32,000 nt of DNA from Thermodesulfobacteriota bacterium (GCA_026625185.1 CP113000.1:1275622-1307621); one strand, 5' to 3'; shown: positions 1,742 to 15,388, counted from the first letter of the stretch. A program made the numbers and translations. Notes: generated by a model from the letters alone, not told the origin.

Positions 1742-3331
1742 TTAATTACTTGGAAGTCTTACTTGCTGGACAGAAAGAAGGTCGGGATGGCTACGAAGGG
1801 TATCCAGAGCATCTGAGGGGGCTTCTTCGTCCAAACGAACCATAGCGATTGCGCGATCATTTTTTGCTGTTCGGCTTAGGTGCATATTGGCGATGTTAAC
1901 CTGATACTTTCCGAGTGTTGAACCGATAAACCCGATTACCCCTGGTTTGTCAAGGTTTTGTATTATCAGGTTAACACCTTCAAGTTCCGTTTCTAGTCCG
2001 TAATTATACAATCGAACCAGCCGAATTTCTTTCCCTGGTAAGACCGTACCCGCGGCAGAACATTTTGCTCCTTTTCCTTGGACAGTTAACTTTATAAGCC
2101 CCGAATAGCCTGTAGTTTCAGAAGTGGAGGAAGCTATGAGATCAATTTTACGCTCTTTGAGAAGAAAGGGTGCGTTTACAAAATTAACTTTTTCTGCAAG
2201 AATGGGATCAAGTAACCCTTTGGCGGCTGCTTGAGTTAATGCCTGTAAGGGCAATTGCAGGAGCTCCATTCCACTAAATTCGATTTCCACGCGTTCAATA
2301 AGCGCAACCAGTTGTGCCTGGAGGTTTCCCAAGCGTTCTGCCAGAGCGATATAAGGCTGTATCTTTTCAAAGTCTTTCGAGGATATGGCCGGAAAATTGA
2401 CCGCATTGTGAATAAGTCCGTTTTTAAGGAAATTAATTAATTGAGAAGCAATTGCAAGAGCTACGTTATTTTGCGCCTGAACACTTGATGCCCCTAAATG
2501 AGGGGTAAAGATCACATTTTCTAATTCAAGTAAGGGATTGTCTCCAGGTGGTTCTTGCGCAAAAACATCCAAAGCGGCTCCGGCAACCTGTTCTCCTACA
2601 ATCGCCTGGTAAAGAGCGTTTTCATCAATAAGTCCTCCTCTTGCACAGTTGATGATTTGAACACCTCTTTTCATCTTGGCGATTGTATCGGAGTTAATAA
2701 GATTTCTCGTTTCAGGATTAAGAGGAGTATGAAGGGTAATAAAATCAGAACGGTTAAGCAGGTCGGATAGAGAGACTAACTCGACGCCTAAGGCAATCGC
2801 CGCATCCCCGGTCACATGAGGATCGTAGGCAATCACGTGCATTTCCATGCTTAAAGCTCGTTTTGCTAAAATGGAACCGACTTTTCCAAGGCCGATAATT
2901 CCCAAGGTTTGTTGATAAAGCTCCATTCCCATAAACTGTTTCTTTTCCCAACGCCCTTCACGTAAAGATTGTGTTGCCTGGGGGATGTGACGAGCAAGAG
3001 CAAGCATTAGGGCTAAAGTATGTTCAGCAGCGGCCATCGCATTGGCGCCGGGAGTATTCATGACCAGGATTCCTCTGGCACTGGCTGCTTGAACGTCAAT
3101 GTTGTCTACTCCACTCCCCGCACGTCCGATGACCTTAAGTTTCGGCGCGTATTCAAGAAGGTCCTTGGTAACTTTTGTCCGGCTACGAACTACCATAGCG
3201 TCACACTCAGGCAGTATATTCTTAATTTCTTCGAGAGTTGGCTGTTCGGGAGCATCAACTTGAATGTTTTCTTCGGCACGCAAAAGCTGTAACCCGCTTT
3301 TTTCCATCCCATCACAAATAAGAATACGCAT
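1742..3331 (-). CDS. serA: D-3-phosphoglycerate dehydrogenase, long form with C-terminal ACT-type regulatory domain
   Basis: The 529-aa ORF has a D-2-hydroxyacid dehydrogenase core with the NAD loop GIIGLGKVGSILA and HTPLNPETRNLI. Its C-terminal part (NLIIQNLDKPGVIGFIGSTLGKYQVNIANMHL) looks like an ACT domain. The length is typical of long-form SerA. Confidence 0.9.
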   Translation of the reverse strand: MRILICDGMEKSGLQLLRAEENIQVDAPEQPTLEEIKNILPECDAMVVRSRTKVTKDLLEYAPKLKVIGRAGSGVDNIDVQAASARGILVMNTPGANAMAAAEHTLALMLALARHIPQATQSLREGRWEKKQFMGMELYQQTLGIIGLGKVGSILAKRALSMEMHVIAYDPHVTGDAAIALGVELVSLSDLLNRSDFITLHTPLNPETRNLINSDTIAKMKRGVQIINCARGGLIDENALYQAIVGEQVAGAALDVFAQEPPGDNPLLELENVIFTPHLGASSVQAQNNVALAIASQLINFLKNGLIHNAVNFPAISSKDFEKIQPYIALAERLGNLQAQLVALIERVEIEFSGMELLQLPLQALTQAAAKGLLDPILAEKVNFVNAPFLLKERKIDLIASSTSETTGYSGLIKLTVQGKGAKCSAAGTVLPGKEIRLVRLYNYGLETELEGVNLIIQNLDKPGVIGFIGSTLGKYQVNIANMHLSRTAKNDRAIAMVRLDEEAPSDALDTLRSHPDLLSVQQVRLPSN

Positions 3332-3506: not shown

Positions 3507-4823
3507 TTAGCGTGCTTCTCTCAAAAGTCCCTGGATGGTGAGAGCCTTCCCCTCGTCTAAGGGAAGGTACTCATAGAACTCCTTTTTGCTATGAATGGAC
3601 GAATATCCGTCCATCAACGAATAATGACTCTTCAGAGCATCGGCAAAGAGGTACCCGAATAAATGATGGAAGCCCAGAGGATTGACCCCTAAAGCGAGGT
3701 AGCCATTAGATCTCCACAATCTACCTGCCTGGTCATAGTTTTCGCCCCAAAAGATCATGAAGGAGCCGGGAGTTTCTTCTAACGGTACGGCATTAGTATA
3801 AAGTACCCGCTTGCTGTAAACATAGTCGGGATTGTTCATGCTGACCTCCCAGATCCACACGGGACGGATTTCCAGCTTTTCCGGAAAACCCACGCCGGTT
3901 TTTTTCATGTCGTACTTTGGCCTCATGTCCGGGTTTTCTTCCATCCAGCCGGAAGTAAACTGGGGGTAGAACATTTCGCGCTGCGCTACCATCCTGCAAG
4001 TCTGCTCAGGGGTGATCTTCTGCTGCCAGACCTGGAAATCATCGGGAATAGCGTCGCTCCCAAGAAGAGGATCGGTCAAATCTCCACCGGTGAGGCGGCG
4101 TATTCTTTTCAAAGCCGGTATATAGGAGAAGACGTCATCGGGCTTAGTCATGCTCCAAAACTTGTGCCGCAAGAGAATGAAGCCCCGGACGTCCTGCGGC
4201 TCGGTAATCATAATGGTCCCTTTAAATACGATACCATCCTTTGTATAGGGCTCCAGGTTTCCAAAGGGCGGCATTTCTACTCTATTCAAGTACCTGCGCT
4301 CCTGATTGATCCAGGTAAACCGCTTCTGGTATCTGTTCTTATCAAACAAGTTGAACGCCGCATAAAACCTATGGTCATCATGGCCCCCAGCGGTCCGATT
4401 GTACAGGGTATAAGAATTCCACAGAAGCTCGGAAGCGTTTTTGGGATGGGGAAAGGGATTGCCGCCCTGCCAGTTCAAAAGCTCTTGCGTCTTAGGGTCT
4501 ATGCTCGCTGTTCCCTGGTGCTTGAGGCTGGCTTCTCTCCAAGCAGAAGAAACCCCCGGGTATTTTTTAGAATACTCCACGATGGGTATGGTTATCCCTC
4601 CTTCCTTCACTCCAAACTCATTATAAATGAGTTTGGAGGGGGGAAGCAACTTTTTAAGCTCCGGAAGGTATTGATCCCAGTTATCTTTGGTGATTACCAG
4701 TCCCGGTTTAATCGGCCCCTGGTATTTTTCCAGAGGGGGCATTTGAGCAAAAAGACCGGTCCCGCTGAAGCCGATCACCAGGAATACGGTGAAAATAAAT
4801 AGTATGACTTTTTTATTCCTCAT
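3507..4823 (-). CDS. DUF1329-family periplasmic/outer-membrane-associated protein (LolA-like 'lipoprotein-sorting' fold family)
   Basis: The 438-aa ORF has an SD (AAGGAG-N6-ATG) and a signal peptide (...FSGTGLFAQ). The soluble body is rich in aromatic residues. The N-terminal pattern KPGLVITKDNWDQYLPELKKLLPP and the adjacency to a DUF1302-type barrel match what I recall for DUF1329. Confidence 0.7.
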   Translation of the reverse strand: MRNKKVILFIFTVFLVIGFSGTGLFAQMPPLEKYQGPIKPGLVITKDNWDQYLPELKKLLPPSKLIYNEFGVKEGGITIPIVEYSKKYPGVSSAWREASLKHQGTASIDPKTQELLNWQGGNPFPHPKNASELLWNSYTLYNRTAGGHDDHRFYAAFNLFDKNRYQKRFTWINQERRYLNRVEMPPFGNLEPYTKDGIVFKGTIMITEPQDVRGFILLRHKFWSMTKPDDVFSYIPALKRIRRLTGGDLTDPLLGSDAIPDDFQVWQQKITPEQTCRMVAQREMFYPQFTSGWMEENPDMRPKYDMKKTGVGFPEKLEIRPVWIWEVSMNNPDYVYSKRVLYTNAVPLEETPGSFMIFWGENYDQAGRLWRSNGYLALGVNPLGFHHLFGYLFADALKSHYSLMDGYSSIHSKKEFYEYLPLDEGKALTIQGLLREAR

Positions 4824-4874
4824 TTAAATCTCCTTTCGCTTTTTGCATTCACTTCTTTTAGGAACCCTCTCTTT

Positions 4875-6362
4875 TTAAAAGAGATACTTTATCTGAAGGT
4901 AAAACTCATCCTTGTGATTCATGACATTAAAAGGAAGTCGGAGACTATGACCTTGAAATATCAGGGCCCCGATCTCCGGACGCCAATGATCGCCATATTT
5001 AAACGTCACCCTCGGTTTCATGTACCAACCACTATTAGTGATATCATATACCACTAAACAATCAGGACTAATCCGGGCGTTGCGGTAGTCAGTATTAACC
5101 TTTAAACTTACAAAGTTGGTACTTTGATTCAGCTTCTGGTTGTAAGGGCCTTCAACCAGACCCCATTCGTGGTCAAAGGTCCAGAAGTTAAAAAACTGCC
5201 CACTGAAGCTAATCATCTGCTCCGGATTGAGCCAACGCATCCACGCCTTGGCATCAAAACCCACCATGGAGTGGAGACGAGCTCTTCTGGTTACCATATC
5301 CGAATGCTTGGCTTGATTTAGGCTGCCTACCGGCTCATCAGGGTACATGGCAAACTCCCCCCGGAGAATAAAGAGGTTGCCCAAACTCTTATTGAAAGTG
5401 AAGCCGACGATGTTCATGGAATAATATCGCTGGATCAAGTTAAGCATTATCAAATCCGGGGGCCGCCCACCAGGATCGGGTATGGGAGTGGGACCGCCGG
5501 GCCCCATCCACAGCGCGGTATCCCCATGGAATTCGGTGGAAGGATTGTGGTTAAAGCCATGAAAGTAGTTGAGGGTCATAAACCATCCCCCGACTTCTAT
5601 TCCCATGCGCGCACCGTAACTGCTGCTATCGAAGCTGTAACGGGTTTTCTTGTGTTCTTGGATAACCGGGATCACGGGCGCTCCCCAGGGAGTAAAGGTA
5701 AGCGTAGGAAGGGGAATGGACCAGGGGCCATTAGAGTTAGGCGCCTTCACCGGATCTCCGAGATCAAGCAAGTCCTTCTTGAAATCCGGAGTCCACACCC
5801 ACTCTACAAACCAATTTCTTACTGGATCTATATCATAGATGGCCCTAACGGCAGTCAAAGGTCGACGGATCTCTGACCAATCCCGGGTATTAAACTGGCG
5901 GCGCATATCCAATGGATTGATGATGTCCATAAGCCTGACCCCATCGCTCTCGCCCCAGACAATCTGTTGCAGCCCCAGCTTAAGGGTCAGCTTATTCAAT
6001 ACTAACACCCCATACATTTCTCGCAACTTGTTTTCTTCATCTAAAGTATCCCCACTGCCTTCATATTGATCCCAGTAATTTCCACCATCCCGAATATCCC
6101 ACACATGATCGTAGAGAGATCTCCAAGACCCATAAAAACTCAGATTGGGAGAAAATTTATAATCCGCGTCGATTCGTAAAGTGTTTTCAAAAGATACCAG
6201 CCCCGCACCTCCAAGACGGAAGGAGGACTGGTTTTGGAGGTAGCCATCAACCCACAATTTATTGTCCAAAAAGGAAAACCGACCATAGGTGGGAGCGGCC
6301 TGGGAAAAAATGGCCACTCCACCTAAAAGAAAAATCAGGATAAGCTTTAACTTCTTTTTCAT
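4875..6362 (-). CDS. DUF1302-family outer-membrane beta-barrel protein
   Basis: The 495-aa ORF has a signal peptide (MKKKLKLILIFLLGGVAIFSQA) and an alternating amphipathic beta-strand pattern. The C-terminus ...FYLQIKYLF ends in Phe, an OMP sorting signature. It is paired with DUF1329. Confidence 0.7.
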   Translation of the reverse strand: MKKKLKLILIFLLGGVAIFSQAAPTYGRFSFLDNKLWVDGYLQNQSSFRLGGAGLVSFENTLRIDADYKFSPNLSFYGSWRSLYDHVWDIRDGGNYWDQYEGSGDTLDEENKLREMYGVLVLNKLTLKLGLQQIVWGESDGVRLMDIINPLDMRRQFNTRDWSEIRRPLTAVRAIYDIDPVRNWFVEWVWTPDFKKDLLDLGDPVKAPNSNGPWSIPLPTLTFTPWGAPVIPVIQEHKKTRYSFDSSSYGARMGIEVGGWFMTLNYFHGFNHNPSTEFHGDTALWMGPGGPTPIPDPGGRPPDLIMLNLIQRYYSMNIVGFTFNKSLGNLFILRGEFAMYPDEPVGSLNQAKHSDMVTRRARLHSMVGFDAKAWMRWLNPEQMISFSGQFFNFWTFDHEWGLVEGPYNQKLNQSTNFVSLKVNTDYRNARISPDCLVVYDITNSGWYMKPRVTFKYGDHWRPEIGALIFQGHSLRLPFNVMNHKDEFYLQIKYLF

Positions 6363-6389
6363 TTGTTTCTTCCTCTCTGCTCAAAAAAC

Positions 6390-6634
6390 TAATTAGTTCA
6401 TCCTGAACAATACGTTCTTTTGATGGAAATTGTTCTTTGAAAACCGAATAGAATTGTGAAATAGGGACCTCCTTGTCTGCCGACAGGCAGGCTATAGTGC
6501 TTTTCCAATGCCTCATGCAAACTGTCCCGGTCAATAAGATTGGCAGCACGCATGAGCTCGTGGTCAGAATCTAATTGATCCGAAAAGATTAACTCAAACA
6601 TCGGAAGTTGCCATTCCGCTATTTTGATTGACAT
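6390..6634 (-). pseudogene. Frameshifted, truncated N-terminal remnant of an IS5-like (DUF772-type) transposase
   Basis: The minus-strand frame gives MSIKIAEWQLPMFELIFSDQLDSDHELMRAANLIDRDSLHEALEKHYSLPVGRQ. This follows the DUF772 N-terminal pattern QLxlFE...L..DHxLr....lIDw..l.e.l...YS..GRp. Homology then appears to continue in another frame (..VPISQFYSVFKEQFPSKERIVQDEL..). No DDE catalytic domain follows. Confidence 0.4.
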
Positions 6635-6782
6635 TTCAATTTATTATATCATGAGATCATCAGAAAAACCGGAGGGTTTTTTGCAATTCTATTCAATTTT
6701 CAAAGAGCCGCTCAGTATTAATAAGGGTTTTAAAGCCTTTTTTCAGGGTGGACTAATTATTAAAAATTTTTTTCTATTTTTA

Positions 6783-9131
6783 CTAATTCTTATCACTTCC
6801 TTCCTCATCCCCTTTAACCTCTTTAAATAGTTTAGATCTAAAGCAATAGGTCAGTGTTGGTACCAGAAAGAGAGCTCCCACCACGTTTGCAGCAAGCAGA
6901 AAGGCAAGCAAAAACCCCATGTCCGCCTGAAACTTCACTTCACTGAAGTACCAAAAAACGATTCCCACTACCACTACAAGTCCGGTTACCACCACTGCCC
7001 GACCGGTGCTGGAAAAACTTCTGATGATGGATTGTTTGATGTCCCCTCCGGTCTCCTGCATTTCATTAATGATCCTGCTCAGCATGTAGATTCCATAGTC
7101 TATTCCTAATCCTGCTCCAATAGAAGCTACCGGTAAAATACTAATGGTCATTCCCATCCCGGCCAAAGCCATATAAGCTGAGGCGATCAGGTTGCCCGTA
7201 ATCAGGGAAATTATGAGGACAATCCCCCTTAGGAATGATCTATAGGGGATGACACAGCAAATGAAGATGATTAAAAGGGCCAGGACCAAGGTGAGCGTAC
7301 TATATTGCGCTACCGTCTCATCGATGCTCGCGGTCACTCCTATGATTCCTCCAGCCAACTTTAATTCCACATGTTCGCTGGGGATAGGGTATCGGGTCAG
7401 GAAATCTTTGCAGACCTGGATCGCATGTCTTATGGTCTCCCCCTGGTGATCCTTAAAATAACAAATGAGATTCCCATGTTGGAAAGGAATGTCGGCCCAA
7501 CGATCAAAGTCTCCCGGTTCACCTTTTACCTCATAGGCCCATAAATAAAAACCACACTCATCCGGAGTGGCGGGAATTTTACTCCATTTGGGATCACCCT
7601 CATGGTATTCCCGGTTAAGCTTTTTTACGATCCCCACCAATGTTTCCGTCCCCCCCACAGAAGGGCACTTACCCTGAAACTCCCGCTCCAGGGCTTCGAT
7701 TGCTCGAAGTACTTCAGGTTCCTTCAAAGCATTCCGGTGCTTGCCTTCAATAATTATGTAAAGGGGATTTGTTCCCGGGAAGTGACGGTTGAGAACGGCA
7801 TCCTGGGAGTTATAAGGAGAATCCGGCCACAAAAGGGGTGAGCCTGGATGAACATCTCCTACCTCAACCCGCATAGACAAGGTAGAGGATGCGACAAAAA
7901 CAACCAGCCAACCCCCCATAACCATCACCATGTTTCTCCTGCCCGCCATAAGCCATTCTCCCCACTTAGTAAGAGCGTTAGTCAGAAAATCTGTCTTTTC
8001 TATCTTTTTGAGGGGGGAGGGTAGATAACAAAAGAGAATGGGAAGCAGCAGACTTACACCAAGAACTGCACCCAAAAGCCAGGTGCCCGAGATCCAACCT
8101 AAAGTCCTCAGTAAAGGAATGGGAACAACGCAAAGGATATAAAGGCCGGCTGCGTCGGTAATGATAGATGCAGCCGAGGGAATGAACATGATATTTATGG
8201 TAGCTATCGAGGCCTCCTCTCTATCTTTAATTGTTTGGCAATATTCTCCGTATCTATCAAGTATCTGCACTCCGTGGCTGATGATCCTGGCCACGATCAC
8301 AAAGGGGATAACCAGTCCCAAGGGGTCGAGATTGAATCTGGCCAAACCCATTAACCCCAGACCCCAGATTGTGTTTATCAAAGCGAGTAATAGGGGCAGG
8401 CAAACAAAAATCCCCCGATATTGATTGAGAAATATGAAAAGGAGGGCAAGTTCGGCCAATACACTTGCCACGAAGATCAGCAGTGATTTTGGATTGTTAT
8501 GATATATCCACCCTATGAGCATGGGCTTTCCCGAGATATAAAACTCTAAATCTTTTCCTGCTACGTCAGTCTGTAATTTTTCAAAGAAATTGAACAATTT
8601 CCGGTAATTGATTTCATCCTTGAAGGTCGCAACAATGAAGGCCATTTTACCATCACCGGAAACCAAAGAACCCCTTATCAACTCATTACTGAAGACACTC
8701 TCCTTTAGTTGCTCTATTTCTTCAGGCCTCTTTGGAACCCCCATTTTATAAAACGGCCTTACATCTACCCCTGCCGGAGTCCCTTCGATATTTTTTACCT
8801 TCGCCCTGCTGAGGGAGATTACCTGGGAAGTTATGGCATCAGGATAAAACATAATCTTTTCCGTTAGCACCTTGAGCTTCTCTAAGAACTGAGGTTGGAA
8901 AATATCCCCTTCCCTTGGCTTAAGGCCAATAATAGTGGTATTAGCACCTCCAAAGAGCTGTTGAAACTTGAGGTGGATCTTTACGTAGGGGTGATTCTGA
9001 GGCAAGGTGCTTTCAAAGGAGGTTGAAAAACTTAAATATCTGATCTGGTAACCGAGGTAAAGGGTAATAAAGAAACTTATGGCCACAAAAAACAAACGGT
9101 GTTTTATAACCAACCTATAAAATTTCACCAT
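6783..9131 (-). CDS. RND-superfamily (MMPL/HpnN-like) inner-membrane exporter
   Basis: The ORF shows two blocks of about six TM helices separated by large periplasmic loops (for example LLIFVASVLAELALLFIFL..., LVLALLIIFICCVIPY...). I moved the start from the track's TTG at 9164 to ATG 9131, which has a perfect SD (TAAGGAGG-N6-ATG). This gives 782 aa. Confidence 0.85.
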   Translation of the reverse strand: MVKFYRLVIKHRLFFVAISFFITLYLGYQIRYLSFSTSFESTLPQNHPYVKIHLKFQQLFGGANTTIIGLKPREGDIFQPQFLEKLKVLTEKIMFYPDAITSQVISLSRAKVKNIEGTPAGVDVRPFYKMGVPKRPEEIEQLKESVFSNELIRGSLVSGDGKMAFIVATFKDEINYRKLFNFFEKLQTDVAGKDLEFYISGKPMLIGWIYHNNPKSLLIFVASVLAELALLFIFLNQYRGIFVCLPLLLALINTIWGLGLMGLARFNLDPLGLVIPFVIVARIISHGVQILDRYGEYCQTIKDREEASIATINIMFIPSAASIITDAAGLYILCVVPIPLLRTLGWISGTWLLGAVLGVSLLLPILFCYLPSPLKKIEKTDFLTNALTKWGEWLMAGRRNMVMVMGGWLVVFVASSTLSMRVEVGDVHPGSPLLWPDSPYNSQDAVLNRHFPGTNPLYIIIEGKHRNALKEPEVLRAIEALEREFQGKCPSVGGTETLVGIVKKLNREYHEGDPKWSKIPATPDECGFYLWAYEVKGEPGDFDRWADIPFQHGNLICYFKDHQGETIRHAIQVCKDFLTRYPIPSEHVELKLAGGIIGVTASIDETVAQYSTLTLVLALLIIFICCVIPYRSFLRGIVLIISLITGNLIASAYMALAGMGMTISILPVASIGAGLGIDYGIYMLSRIINEMQETGGDIKQSIIRSFSSTGRAVVVTGLVVVVGIVFWYFSEVKFQADMGFLLAFLLAANVVGALFLVPTLTYCFRSKLFKEVKGDEEGSDKN

Positions 9132-9219
9132 CTGTGTCCTCCTTAAAATAGCAGTAACGTGCAACCCAATTCAAAATTCCACCTCATTGTCTCACGAAAG
9201 AATAAAAGGCGCGTAACAT

Positions 9220-10248
9220 TTATCTGAAAATGCTACAGGTAAGAGTTTTTGGGTTTACCGTGAGAATTTTACCTGCTTCGCCCACGACAAAAATCTTTTC
9301 GCTGCCGGCTGATGCAATCCCTTCAAACCAATTGACCCCTATTGACTTCGGAAGACACACCTTCGACCAGTGGCCTCTATAATCAGTCATTGAAAGAACT
9401 GTTCCCTTTAACCCTACCACATAAGCACAGCCGTCAATGAACTTGACCTTAAGAAGGCTGGCGCCGGCTCCGCTACCGCTATCTATCTCTTCCCACGTTG
9501 TCCCGCCGTCGAAACTTCTCAACGAATATCCACTCATTCCCACAGCTATTCCCACTCTACCATCATCCGTAAAATCAATGCTGTTGAGGCTCGGGTGGGA
9601 AGCCTCAAGCTTCTCTACGTCTAAAGTCCTCTCTTCCCCCATAACCCTCTTAAAAGTTACCCCTCCATCCTCGGTCAAGATAATGGTGCCGAACTCTCCC
9701 ACAACAAAGCCCTTTTTAGAATCAAGGAATTTCACATCCTTCAGGACCAATTCCTCACCAGTAGACAGAACTTCCCAACTCTTACCACCATCGGCGGTAC
9801 GGAGGATGGTATGCGATTGCCCGACCGCCCATCCTTCCAAACGGTTGAGAAAACAGACCGCGCTGAGGTCATTTCCCGTGCCGCTTATTTGCTTTCTCCA
9901 GGTCTTGCCGCCATCTGAAGTTGAAAGAATTACTCCTTGAGTTCCCACGATCCACCCATAGTCTGCATCCCCAAAAGTAACTGCGGTTAAAAGTTCCTTG
10001 GTGCCGCTTTCTTGTAATTTCCAGGTTTCTCCTTCATCAGGGCTATAGAGAATAGTCCCGTAATATCCCACTGTATACCCGTGCCTCTCCACAAAACAGA
10101 CATCGTACAGGGAATCCCCGATTGAGCTTTGTCTTCCCCTCTCACCTACCTCCGTCTTTTTTGCATTAGGAAGCATTGAATGGCTGATGATTACGAGCCC
10201 CAACAAGAATCCTATGACCATTACCCATTTATGGATCACTCTTGTCAT
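9220..10248 (-). CDS. BNR/Asp-box beta-propeller protein (Ycf48/Hcf136-like), membrane-anchored or secreted
   Basis: The 342-aa ORF has an SD (AAAGGAGAG-N5-ATG) and an N-terminal hydrophobic anchor. It contains repeated SxDxGxTW Asp-box motifs: SPDEGETW, STSDGGKTW, RTADGGKSW, TEDGGVTF and SFDGGTTW. Confidence 0.8.
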   Translation of the reverse strand: MTRVIHKWVMVIGFLLGLVIISHSMLPNAKKTEVGERGRQSSIGDSLYDVCFVERHGYTVGYYGTILYSPDEGETWKLQESGTKELLTAVTFGDADYGWIVGTQGVILSTSDGGKTWRKQISGTGNDLSAVCFLNRLEGWAVGQSHTILRTADGGKSWEVLSTGEELVLKDVKFLDSKKGFVVGEFGTIILTEDGGVTFKRVMGEERTLDVEKLEASHPSLNSIDFTDDGRVGIAVGMSGYSLRSFDGGTTWEEIDSGSGAGASLLKVKFIDGCAYVVGLKGTVLSMTDYRGHWSKVCLPKSIGVNWFEGIASAGSEKIFVVGEAGKILTVNPKTLTCSIFR

Positions 10249-10405
10249 TTCTTCTCTCCTTTTCTTTTGGAATGAGGCAAAATAATACCCTGAAATTCAA
10301 GTCGATGCAGGTCCTTTTTCTTTACAACTAATTGATACTTTATTGTTTTTATCCTAATTTTAATAAAACGTTGGGACACTACTGGCTTACAATAAAAAAA
10401 AAAGC

Positions 10406-10434
10406 TTGACAATTAAAATTATGATAGCTATATT
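10406..10434 (+). promoter_or_regulatory. Sigma70-type promoter, repeat copy 1 (TTGACA-N17-TATATT)
   Basis: The -35 hexamer TTGACA is at 10406-10411 and the -10 hexamer TATATT at 10429-10434, separated by a 17-nt spacer. An A10 run lies immediately upstream in the UP-element position. Confidence 0.55.
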
Positions 10435-10532
10435 GTGATTAAATTGTGAATACGGCCTTTGACCAAAATAAAAGCAAAAGTTTAAAGTCAAAACCGATTT
10501 TCCTATAACAACGGTAAGCGAGAAAAAAAGGC

Positions 10533-10561
10533 TTGACAAGTAAAATTATGATAGCCATATT
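10533..10561 (+). promoter_or_regulatory. Sigma70-type promoter, repeat copy 2 (TTGACA-N17-CATATT)
   Basis: The -35 hexamer TTGACA is at 10533-10538 and the -10 hexamer CATATT at 10556-10561, separated by a 17-nt spacer. An A-run lies upstream. Confidence 0.5.
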
Positions 10562-10658
10562 GTGATTAAATTGTGAATACGGCCTTTGACCAAAATAAAA
10601 GCAAAAGTTTAAATTCAAAAAGGATTTTCATATAACAACGGCAAGGGCGAAAAAAAGC

Positions 10659-10687
10659 TTGACAAGTAAAATTATGATAGCTATATT
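10659..10687 (+). promoter_or_regulatory. Sigma70-type promoter, repeat copy 3, proximal promoter of the bam operon (TTGACA-N17-TATATT)
   Basis: The -35 hexamer TTGACA is at 10659-10664 and the -10 hexamer TATATT at 10682-10687. The predicted TSS is near 10694, which leaves a ~130-nt leader before the bamB ATG at 10825. Confidence 0.65.
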
Positions 10688-10723
10688 GTAATTAAATTGT
10701 GAGTACATTTTAAGCAATTTCAA

Positions 10724-10744
10724 CCTCTATCCGACGGGTGGAGG
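10724..10744 (+). promoter_or_regulatory. Leader stem-loop in the bamB 5' UTR
   Basis: CCTCTATCC-GAC-GGGTGGAGG forms a 9-bp stem (two G.U pairs) with a 3-nt loop. The 3' arm contains a GGAGG SD-like sequence. Confidence 0.3.
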
Positions 10745-10824
10745 AGTTATTGCGGTATGTGTGAGTAATTAATGTTTAGTCAAAAAGTATTTCGCGTGAT
10801 TCAGATAAGAAAGAAGGGAAAAAA

Positions 10825-14590: not shown

Positions 14591-15388
14591 ATGCAAGAAG
14601 CGATTGACGTATCAGCCCTGAAAGGTGTAGTAGCGGGCATGACCTGTGATCGGTTTTCAGACGAGGGATGGGTGAGGACCTCAGTTTACGCGCCTAGTGA
14701 GATGCAACTGAAAATTTATATAAATCAGCAGGAACTGGTCTCCATCCTGTGCACTCCAACCAAGCTGAATTGCCTTGCCTTCGGGTTCCTGTACACCGAG
14801 GGAATCATCTCCGGCATCGGCGACGTGGCGGGCATGCGGGTGTGTGAGGATGACTCGCTGGTCGATGTGAGGCTGAGCAAAACCGAGTTTAAATTGCCGA
14901 CCCTGCGGACACTTACCTCTGGGTGCGGTGGCGGTGCAATTTTCAAAACTGAGGGACAAAGGGTTGATTCTGGTCTTACTGTTACACCAACGGAAGTGCT
15001 GGCGCTGATGAAAAAGCTTCAAGGGCAGATGCAACTCTTTCGGCTTAGCGGCGGCGTGCACACTTCAGCTCTGTCCGATACCAGGAACCTGTTGGTGGTG
15101 GCTGAGGATATCGGACGGCATAACACCTTTGACAAGATTCAGGGCGAATGTCTATTGAGGAAACTATCAACCAAAGATCGACTGGTACTAACCACCGGTC
15201 GCGTTTCGTCCGAGATGTTGCTCAAGGCGGCAAAGATGAAGGTACCGGTTGTTGCAACCCGGCACTCGCCGACGGAGCGAGCTATTTCGCTTGCTCTTGA
15301 TCTGGGTATTGCTTTGGTTGGCTATGCCCATGGAAACAGTCTGTCGGTCTATTCCCACCCGGAACGACTTGGGTGGTCGACAAATTAG
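14591..15388 (+). CDS. fdhD: FdhD-family sulfurtransferase/cofactor-insertion protein, embedded in the bam operon
   Basis: The 265-aa ORF carries the FdhD hallmarks GGVHTSAL, EDIGRHNTFDKIQG and VVATRHSPTERAI. Its Cys loop reads LTSGCGGGAIF, with a single Cys where E. coli-type FdhD has SSCGVCG. Confidence 0.8.
   Translation: MQEAIDVSALKGVVAGMTCDRFSDEGWVRTSVYAPSEMQLKIYINQQELVSILCTPTKLNCLAFGFLYTEGIISGIGDVAGMRVCEDDSLVDVRLSKTEFKLPTLRTLTSGCGGGAIFKTEGQRVDSGLTVTPTEVLALMKKLQGQMQLFRLSGGVHTSALSDTRNLLVVAEDIGRHNTFDKIQGECLLRKLSTKDRLVLTTGRVSSEMLLKAAKMKVPVVATRHSPTERAISLALDLGIALVGYAHGNSLSVYSHPERLGWSTN

Follow-up and report, generated by a model that had tools for sequence, protein, structure and literature searches.

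The window analysed here, a stretch of 32,000 nucleotides from the Thermodesulfobacteriota genome GCA_026625185.1 (CP113000.1:1275622-1307621), contains a cassette of four genes that lies back-to-back with the benzoyl-CoA reductase gene bamB. The encoded BamB (WAC08761.1, OS130_06105) is that of ORM2a, a benzene-degrading member of the Desulfobacterota ("Ca. Anaerobenzenivorax") from the methanogenic OR consortium (PMC13101534), whose closed genome contains the window. The four genes encode a Ycf48-like BNR propeller, an RND transporter, a DUF1302 barrel and a DUF1329 protein, each full length relative to its homologues, and they occur in the same order in other anaerobic degraders of aromatic compounds. 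The chances that they form an Ame-type tetrapartite HAE3-RND envelope system, a proton-driven shuttle conduit for hydrophobic compounds that most likely works in the outward direction, are in our estimate about even. The cassette is a second copy in ORM2a and an undiscussed member of a described, mechanistically unsolved type. It comprises the following features, counted from the first nucleotide of the window:

9220-10248, minus strand: Ycf48-like BNR/Asp-box β-propeller, 342 aa (WAC08760.1), equivalent to AmeC
6783-9131, minus strand: HAE3-type RND/MMPL inner-membrane transporter, 782 aa (WAC08759.1, OS130_06095), equivalent to AmeD
4875-6362, minus strand: DUF1302 outer-membrane β-barrel, 495 aa (WAC08757.1, OS130_06085, annotated as 'hypothetical'), equivalent to AmeA
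3507-4823, minus strand: DUF1329 periplasmic protein with LolA fold, 438 aa (WAC08756.1), equivalent to AmeB
6388-6759, no strand: putative remnant of a miniature inverted-repeat transposable element (MITE) of the IS5 family with its target duplications, in the spacer between the RND and DUF1302 genes
10249-10824, no strand: divergent control region between the cassette and bamB, 576 bp

Four co-directional open reading frames (ORFs) on the minus strand had been placed at these positions in an initial annotation of the window. They were found there again, and the distance between the propeller gene and bamB is exactly the 576 bp given at that time.

Component proteins

The propeller matches the Pfam family PSII_BNR/Ycf48 with 115.9 bits (cut-off 27, E 2.9e-33) and BNR with an E-value of 3.3e-11, and Ycf48/HCF136 chains were matched in a sequence search of the PDB (1e-20 to 1e-18). 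An N-terminal anchor had been claimed for this protein, and a hydropathy scan indeed revealed a single N-terminal hydrophobic segment (residues 8-26) without a lipobox cysteine, which could serve as a membrane anchor or represent a signal that is not cleaved off.

The RND protein is assigned to the Pfam family MMPL (90.4 bits, cut-off 20.5, E 1.4e-25). Its best NCBIfam model is TIGR00921 for HAE3 transporters (3.2e-41), with a score of 141 bits that lies under the trusted cut-off of 352 bits. Matches to PDB sequences are confined to the C-terminal transmembrane (TM) bundle of MmpL3/4/5, at 1e-11 or weaker. The reading frame is open up to a TTG at position 9164 (793 aa); as a small correction to the initial annotation, translation most likely starts at the ATG at position 9131 (782 aa), the codon used by gene callers and in homologues. 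The expected 12 TM segments were all counted in a hydropathy scan, arranged as one segment, a loop (residues 26-216), six segments, a second loop (residues 420-609) and five segments, with both periplasmic loops comprising about 190 aa. In an alignment of 48 homologues with identities down to 18%, D678 is invariant, and Y679 and Y682 in TM10 as well as S285, H286, Q289 and R293 in TM4 are nearly invariant. The protein from the window retains these TM4 residues and, in TM10, G674, D678, Y679 and Y682. By analogy with the Asp-Tyr pairs of MmpL3, the conserved polar residues would fit a working proton relay.

Placement of the other two proteins in DUF1302 and DUF1329 had been proposed from the sequence, and hidden Markov models place both far above the Pfam gathering cut-offs. 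The barrel protein scores 70.2 bits against DUF1302 (PF06980; cut-off 23.2, E 2.4e-19). Features of an outer-membrane protein are present in the form of a signal peptide at the N-terminus and of a C-terminus that reads ...IKYLF and thus ends in Phe. Its AlphaFold2 model, built from a 67-sequence alignment, is a confident β-barrel, all-β with about 20 long strands (pLDDT 90.5, pTM 0.84). A Foldseek search with this model against the PDB led to generic porins only (OmpF, OccAB1; TM-scores 0.4-0.58, 8-12% identity) and the PDB sequence search returned no relative, so that no specific channel family can be assigned. To date, no DUF1302 structure has been solved (PMC13499233).

The DUF1329 protein matches its family (PF07044) with 116.5 bits (cut-off 23.1, E 2.2e-33) and also the LolA_like family with 44.6 bits (cut-off 30, E 1.6e-11). 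It had been described as a secreted LolA-like protein, which agrees with the presence of a signal peptide without a lipobox and with the structural matches of its AlphaFold2 model (pLDDT 92.1, pTM 0.89). In Foldseek, these include LolA3 of P. gingivalis (9tp6, TM-score 0.80 on the target) and a DUF1329 crystal structure (4z48, 0.74), and further matches are the LolA-superfamily structures 3bk5 and 3buu.

Cassettes of the same type in other bacteria

The initial annotation regarded the cluster as uncharacterised, with only genetic hints to its function. This overlooked AmeABCD, predictions of regulons and protein complexes, and a paper on ORM2a itself. The accompanying statement that no mechanism is known still holds, as the searchable literature yielded neither biochemical nor structural work that establishes it.

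AmeABCD of Castellaniella defragrans 65Phen consists of DUF1302, DUF1329, COG4447 and HAE3 RND proteins, which are co-induced on α-phellandrene (Puentes-Cala and Harder 2018; PMC6394551). Deletion of ameABCD lowered tolerance to and growth on non-functionalised monoterpenes and caused a higher accumulation of Nile Red. With limonene and acetate, the mutant resembled the wild type up to 5 mM and failed above this concentration. The authors classified AmeABCD as a tetrapartite RND exporter of a new HAE3 subfamily (PMC6394551). In Shewanella, Kangiella and Pseudomonas, randomly barcoded transposon sequencing (RB-TnSeq) by Price et al. showed that the four genes are cofit, and an export of cell-wall components was proposed; the same authors listed gene clusters for phenanthrene, p-cresol and steroids that contain DUF1329 genes (bioRxiv 072470). 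In P. putida, Thompson et al. connected PP_0765/0766 and PP_2018/2019 with the ability to grow on Tween 20 and on butyl stearate. Cassette genes have been predicted by Suvorova and Gelfand to belong to phenol and toluene regulons (PMC6449761). AlphaFold-Multimer predictions in the Foldy study comprise a DUF1302-DUF1329 complex and a DUF1329-BNR-RND trimer, for which a substrate transport system was proposed (PMC10866462), and the DUF1302-DUF1329 pair was also predicted by ECLIPSE with an ipTM of 0.84 (PMC13499233). DUF1302 and DUF1329 proteins furthermore occur in outer-membrane vesicles and nanopods of Delftia (bioRxiv 072470; PMC13101534).

In ORM2a, a "Nanopod" cluster (WAC07726-WAC07731) encoding porin-like, DUF1329, universal stress (Usp), hypothetical, YCF48 and MMPL proteins was described in 2026 (PMC13101534). 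The cluster is part of a predicted genomic island and shows high expression during growth on benzene, with its DUF1329 protein being the fourth most abundant protein. It was proposed to carry benzene across the envelope, with the direction left open (PMC13101534). The text of this paper does not mention the bam-adjacent cassette or use the word "paralog", and the locus tags of the cassette were not found in the accessible text of its supplementary tables, including the genomic-island table S8. Searches with the DUF1329 and RND proteins from the window yielded no second ORM2a protein among the matches returned. Judged by their sequences, the two ORM2a cassettes appear to be strongly divergent, with the Nanopod proteins outside the range of the homologue search.

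The four families had been said to recur together, and they do so in the published cassettes as well as in several loci found here. The gene order BNR-RND-DUF1302-(Usp)-DUF1329 is present in the genome TRIP AH-1 from a phenanthrene culture (scaffold LT984855, locus L084), where the cassette is flanked by genes for an AMP-dependent ligase (CoA ligase), UbiD-family carboxylases, flavoproteins, a sigma54 activator and an AFOR. An identical order is found in loci L168/L169, behind an AMP-ligase gene, in the Desulfatiglandales loci L062-L064, and on plasmid 2 of Aromatoleum aromaticum EbN1 (L174), where the cassette is located between β-oxidation-type genes. The EbN1 plasmid was the informative one among just four distant matches in a tblastn search of a plasmid collection. 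The nearest DUF1329 relatives outside the genus share 42-48% identity and belong to metagenome-assembled genomes (MAGs) of Syntrophales, to Desulfobacterium N47 and to TRIP AH-1. A broader association with the catabolism of aromatic compounds and hydrocarbons thus recurs in TRIP AH-1, in strain EbN1 and at DUF1329 loci linked to UbiD genes.

Proposed mechanism

The initial annotation had proposed a system that spans the envelope and handles hydrophobic molecules, and this proposal is supported, as are the family assignments. In such a system, the RND protein and the propeller would be located at the inner membrane, with the RND protein being powered by the proton-motive force. It would hand a hydrophobic cargo to the soluble LolA-fold DUF1329 protein, which would enclose the cargo in a hydrophobic groove and take it to the DUF1302 barrel, the port in the outer membrane. 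In hydrocarbon degraders, the likeliest cargo would be the membrane-partitioning hydrocarbon or aromatic substrate itself, and the system might serve as a 'bilge pump' for solvents or control the substrate load, as the phenotypes of AmeABCD suggest. To our knowledge, all characterised RND transporters move their substrates outward, from the membrane or the periplasm. We infer cargo and outward direction from this polarity and from the Ame phenotypes, and the hand-over chain is likewise a proposal. As the copy in the window is seemingly poorly expressed on benzene and split by a MITE, it may be largely silent in ORM2a, where the Nanopod cassette probably does the main job.

Position next to the bam genes and expression

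Back-to-back placement with the bam genes had been taken as a sign of uptake or efflux of aromatic substrates. This argument fails the test proposed along with it, because the arrangement does not recur. A metagenome scan starting from BamB yielded 80 loci with BamB proteins of 76-85% identity, most of them with bamC, bamD and bamE after bamB. Homologues of the four cassette genes are absent from all 80, about 37 of which include upstream DNA of 3 kb or more. Conversely, BamB was found beside DUF1329 in none of 79 DUF1329 loci from species-representative genomes, and two of these loci (L012 and L084) carry a more distant AFOR. The adjacency therefore appears to be unique to this lineage. An insertion of the cassette between ancestral SLT/serA genes and bamB was considered, since SLT- and serA-like matches exist upstream of bamB in L126, L129 and L159; it was rejected because orientation and spacing differ in these loci.

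Several observations weigh against an Ame-type exporter at work in this cassette, beginning with its expression. The proteome evidence is that of Table S6 in PMC13101534, which covers benzene-grown cultures and, among the cassette proteins, the RND transporter. In the accessible part of this table, the RND protein WAC08759.1 has no spectra, compared to 80 spectra in two proteomes for BamB and 60 spectra in two proteomes for the Nanopod RND protein WAC07731.1. These published data argue against co-expression of the cassette with the bam genes. No spectra are recorded there either for the serA-like D-3-phosphoglycerate dehydrogenase WAC08755.1, encoded directly 3' of the cassette (1742-3331, minus strand), while the other SerA copy, WAC08685.1, was detected. 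As both the RND protein and WAC08755.1 are blank, the whole block left of bamB may be poorly expressed.

The state of this copy raises further objections. Within the 420-bp spacer between the RND and barrel genes lies an element of 356 bp (6396-6751), which has terminal inverted repeats of imperfect match and is bracketed by an 8-bp direct duplication, TAATTAGT, at 6388-6395 and 6752-6759. Inside the element, a small ORF (6398-6634, minus strand) matches the IS5 transposase model NF033578 over model residues 3-49 (E 1.3e-6). The spacer thus appears to be a transposon-derived insertion, namely a MITE-like derivative of the IS5 family, an origin that had been missed in the initial annotation. 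The small ORF was also considered as a fifth component of the system or as a remnant of a Usp gene, and both were ruled out as it is an N-terminal transposase fragment within the MITE. A second copy of the terminal repeat was not found elsewhere in the 32-kb window. The insertion seems to be specific to ORM2a, as judged from two relatives: in L005, the corresponding spacer has about 95 bp and lacks the element, and in L172, it has 56 bp with a single TAATTAGT. On the cassette strand, the RNA of the element is predicted to form a long hairpin (-110 kcal/mol, z-score -5.4), which could cause termination, processing or destabilisation of a polycistronic transcript, and this structured element lies right between the RND and DUF1302 genes. 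In addition, the Usp gene of the sister cassettes is missing, as can be concluded from the spacer of only 51 bp between the barrel and DUF1329 genes. L172, with an RND protein of 89% and a DUF1329 protein of 93% identity, was used for estimating the ratio of nonsynonymous to synonymous substitutions (dN/dS), which is 0.17 for DUF1329 and rather high for the RND protein (0.39) and the barrel (0.50), at dS values of 0.13-0.35. Selection hence appears to be purifying, though not tight for the latter two.

Finally, the direction of transport lacks proof, because there has been no direct transport assay for any member of this type. The defects of P. putida on Tween 20 and butyl stearate fit uptake or processing as well as efflux, and the stand-alone DUF1329 genes beside individual catabolic modules, which are described below, bear a closer resemblance to binding proteins of an uptake route than to components of an efflux pump.

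Alternative explanations

The expression data and the insertion could also mean that the cassette is a paralogue that is silent or in decay and does little in ORM2a at present, that the Nanopod cluster is the working system, and that the cassette came to lie beside bamB through a chance genome rearrangement. This is a possible but doubtful explanation. Besides the blank RND and serA-like proteins, the MITE, the missing Usp gene and the raised dN/dS values of the RND protein and the barrel, it can draw on the lineage-unique bam adjacency and on the 3' context, which differs even in L172. There, the cassette is followed by an IS1595 transposase gene and a gene for a 652-aa reductase of the old-yellow-enzyme type (L172 5528-8407), similar to aryl-CoA/dienoyl-CoA reductases, with no serA gene, which suggests that the cassette has recently moved between genomic contexts. 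Decay is at odds with four intact ORFs that have kept their conserved residues, with dN/dS values below 1 throughout and of 0.17 for DUF1329, and with a strong ribosome-binding site and promoter-like sites in front of the cassette; moreover, the accessible proteome data for the cassette come from the RND protein alone and from growth on benzene alone.

The distribution of DUF1329 genes bears on a second alternative, in which the system works inward. A genome scan revealed that the DUF1329 clade nearest to the protein from the window comprises 31 genes at 17 loci in one Thermodesulfobacteriota MAG from a tar biofilm, and paralogues also number 16 in CSMAG_3040, 10 in co172_233 and six in one Syntrophales MAG. 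The genes often stand in tandem arrays (L007, L008/L085, L024-L046, L014-L045) and are interleaved with genes for UbiD-family carboxylases, CrtI-like flavoproteins and hydantoinase/acetone-carboxylase-like proteins. An RND core is located beside only one of 47 near-clade loci. UbiD-like carboxylase or CrtI-like FAD genes occur at 20 of these 47 loci and at one of 32 distant loci (Fisher's exact p about 6e-5, a value that is inflated because many loci stem from one MAG). The presence of many carriers and few cores suggests that DUF1329 acts as the specificity module.

With regard to uptake, the barrel would admit poorly soluble hydrocarbons or aromatic compounds, DUF1329 proteins would serve as substrate-specific periplasmic carriers to the inner membrane, and the RND and BNR proteins would energise or gate this route or recycle the carrier. 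We consider this unlikely. The large expansion of the carriers with hardly any RND core nearby and their enrichment beside UbiD-type and CrtI-like genes would fit such a role, as would the failure of P. putida mutants to grow on Tween 20 or butyl stearate; the authors of Foldy proposed a substrate transport system (PMC10866462), and those of the ORM2a study left the direction open (PMC13101534). What speaks against uptake is the outward polarity of the characterised RND transporters and the phenotype of the ∆ameABCD mutant, whose failure on limonene with acetate only above 5 mM and whose accumulation of Nile Red point to tolerance or efflux (PMC6394551). The counted DUF1329 loci are, in addition, not independent of each other, many being derived from one MAG.

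A further and decidedly speculative step, to which we assign a low probability, would be that DUF1329 has radiated in anaerobic hydrocarbon-degrading Desulfobacterota and Syntrophales into dozens of substrate-specific carriers, each located beside its own activation module such as a UbiD-type carboxylase or a CrtI-like flavoprotein, and docking onto a few shared RND/propeller/barrel cores, one of which would be the bam-adjacent cassette of ORM2a. If true, this would amount to a modular RND-coupled trafficking of water-insoluble aromatic compounds, and a possible inward direction would be unprecedented for RND machinery.

An improbable last alternative is envelope homeostasis, i.e. the export of an endogenous lipid or of an outer-membrane or cell-wall component as in HpnN, MmpL and Lol, with an indirect link to hydrocarbons through membrane repair under solvent stress: the pleiotropic cofitness phenotypes with the proposed export of cell-wall components (bioRxiv 072470), the Delftia vesicles and nanopods, the lipid transport by the closest characterised RND relatives HpnN and the MmpLs, the acyl chains carried by the LolA fold and the universal stress protein of sister cassettes would agree with it, but cassettes and carriers lie repeatedly within clusters and regulons that serve the catabolism of particular hydrophobic substrates, which is unexpected for a housekeeping lipid exporter, and the multiplicity of paralogous carriers within a genome is difficult to explain by a single endogenous cargo.

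Control region and neighbouring genes

The control region between the cassette and bamB includes a tandem array of three units (10396-10706), each about 127 bp long and 92-95% identical to one another. Its promoters, one towards bamB and one towards the cassette in each unit, are matches to consensus sequences. Towards bamB, near-consensus sigma70 sites of the form TTGACA-17-TATATT are found at 10406, 10533 and 10659 (plus strand), with scores of 11/12, 10/12 and 11/12. Each of them is followed by ATTGTGATTAAATTGTGA, a direct TGTGA repeat that looks like an operator. The sites directed towards the cassette (TTCACA-18-TATCAT at 10450, 10577 and 10703, minus strand) are weaker; from the closest one, transcription would begin some 165 nt ahead of the propeller gene, the ATG of which is preceded by the strong Shine-Dalgarno sequence AAGGAGAG. 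The total of promoter-like sites in the control region does not exceed the expectation from shuffled sequences, but the occurrence of a 33-nt promoter core in three copies does. A triplicated array of strong promoter-like sites in front of class II benzoyl-CoA reductase genes would be unusual. An apparent length difference of 100 bp in the control region of another assembly (L003) turned out to be a scaffold gap of 100 N inside the tandem repeat; as this gap lies exactly at the repeats, the number of units may be difficult to assemble or may be variable.

Given the sigma54 activator encoded with sister cassettes, a sigma54 promoter was sought on the cassette strand of the control region, where nothing convincing was found. 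The sole 9/11 match with GG/GC is on the bamB strand. This -24/-12-like element, TGGGAC-N5-TGGCT (10372-10387, plus strand; 9/11 of the consensus), is located 5' of the sigma70-like sites and points towards bamB.

On its 3' side, the cassette is followed by the genes for the serA-like dehydrogenase and an SLT transglycosylase. On the divergent side, bamB is followed by bamC, bamD, fdhD, bamE-I-like genes and a dienoyl-CoA hydratase-like gene. The fdhD gene, encoding an FdhD/NarQ-family sulfurtransferase, lies at 14591-15388 (plus strand) between bamD and bamE. Its product presumably takes part in maturation of a tungsten/molybdopterin cofactor. Among the 80 related bam loci, only three have fdhD between bamD and bamE, and two more have distant FdhD-like matches outside the operon.

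Significance

How strict anaerobes handle benzene and other membrane-toxic, poorly soluble hydrocarbons at their envelope is an open question, and the Nanopod cluster has so far been the only candidate in ORM2a. An intact and apparently unexpressed second cassette beside the benzoyl-CoA reductase genes could provide a natural control pair of an expressed and a silent copy. As the type of cassette is already present in the literature, the gain remains incremental until transport has been measured. The carrier expansion points to the LolA-like protein as the candidate determinant of substrate specificity and is the lead most worth following.

Comparison with known systems

When compared by family assignment, AmeABCD is the closest named counterpart, since all four of its component families are present in the window. 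Both RND proteins (that of AmeABCD being a COG1033 HAE3 protein) have 12 TM segments and two periplasmic loops, and both cassettes form one unit that lies among the genes for anaerobic breakdown of a hydrophobic substrate or next to them. They differ in gene order, which is BNR-RND-DUF1302-DUF1329 in the window and DUF1302-DUF1329-BNR-RND in C. defragrans, in the length of the barrel (495 compared to 605 aa) and in the phylum, which is Thermodesulfobacteriota for the window and Betaproteobacteria for Ame.

The Nanopod cluster belongs to the same organism and comprises the same four families. Its order is barrel-DUF1329-Usp-hypothetical-YCF48-MMPL, whereas the cassette in the window has the opposite order of modules, lacks Usp and carries the MITE. 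The two are not the same locus: the cassette encodes the separate proteins WAC08756-08760, and its RND protein has no spectra in the accessible proteome table.

The cassettes of L084 and L168 have the same gene order as that in the window, with RND proteins of 57-59% and DUF1329 proteins of about 45% identity, and the cassettes of L084, L168/L169 and strain EbN1 are, like the one in the window, flanked by genes for aromatic or acyl-CoA catabolism. In the sister cassettes other than that of EbN1, a Usp gene separates the barrel gene from the DUF1329 gene. The sister cassettes are preceded by a gene for an AMP-dependent ligase, with a sigma54 activator gene on the 3' side in L084, and none of them adjoins bamB.

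Among more distant systems, a classical tripartite HAE1 pump of the AcrAB-TolC type was excluded, as neither HlyD nor OEP was matched in Pfam searches with the cassette proteins or their neighbours. HpnN and MmpL3/4/5 belong to the same RND branch (HAE3/HAE2) as the RND protein from the window and share its 12-TM architecture and the Asp-Tyr motif in TM10. The latter protein is, however, neither an HpnN hopanoid transporter (TIGR03480; 50.4 bits, cut-off 751.85) nor a mycobacterial-type MmpL of the HAE2 family (TIGR00833; 112 bits, cut-off 874.7), and HpnN works without periplasmic or outer-membrane partners (PMC6394551). With the Lol pathway, the proposed conduit would share the principle that a soluble LolA-fold carrier receives a hydrophobic cargo from a machine in the inner membrane and ferries it to an acceptor in the outer membrane. 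It would use an RND protein driven by the proton-motive force instead of an ABC transporter and a large barrel instead of LolB, and its DUF1329 protein has about twice the size of LolA (about 200 aa). Membership in the Lol lipoprotein pathway was rejected, as Pfam searches detected neither an ABC transporter nor LolB in the cassette and only the LolA fold is common to both.

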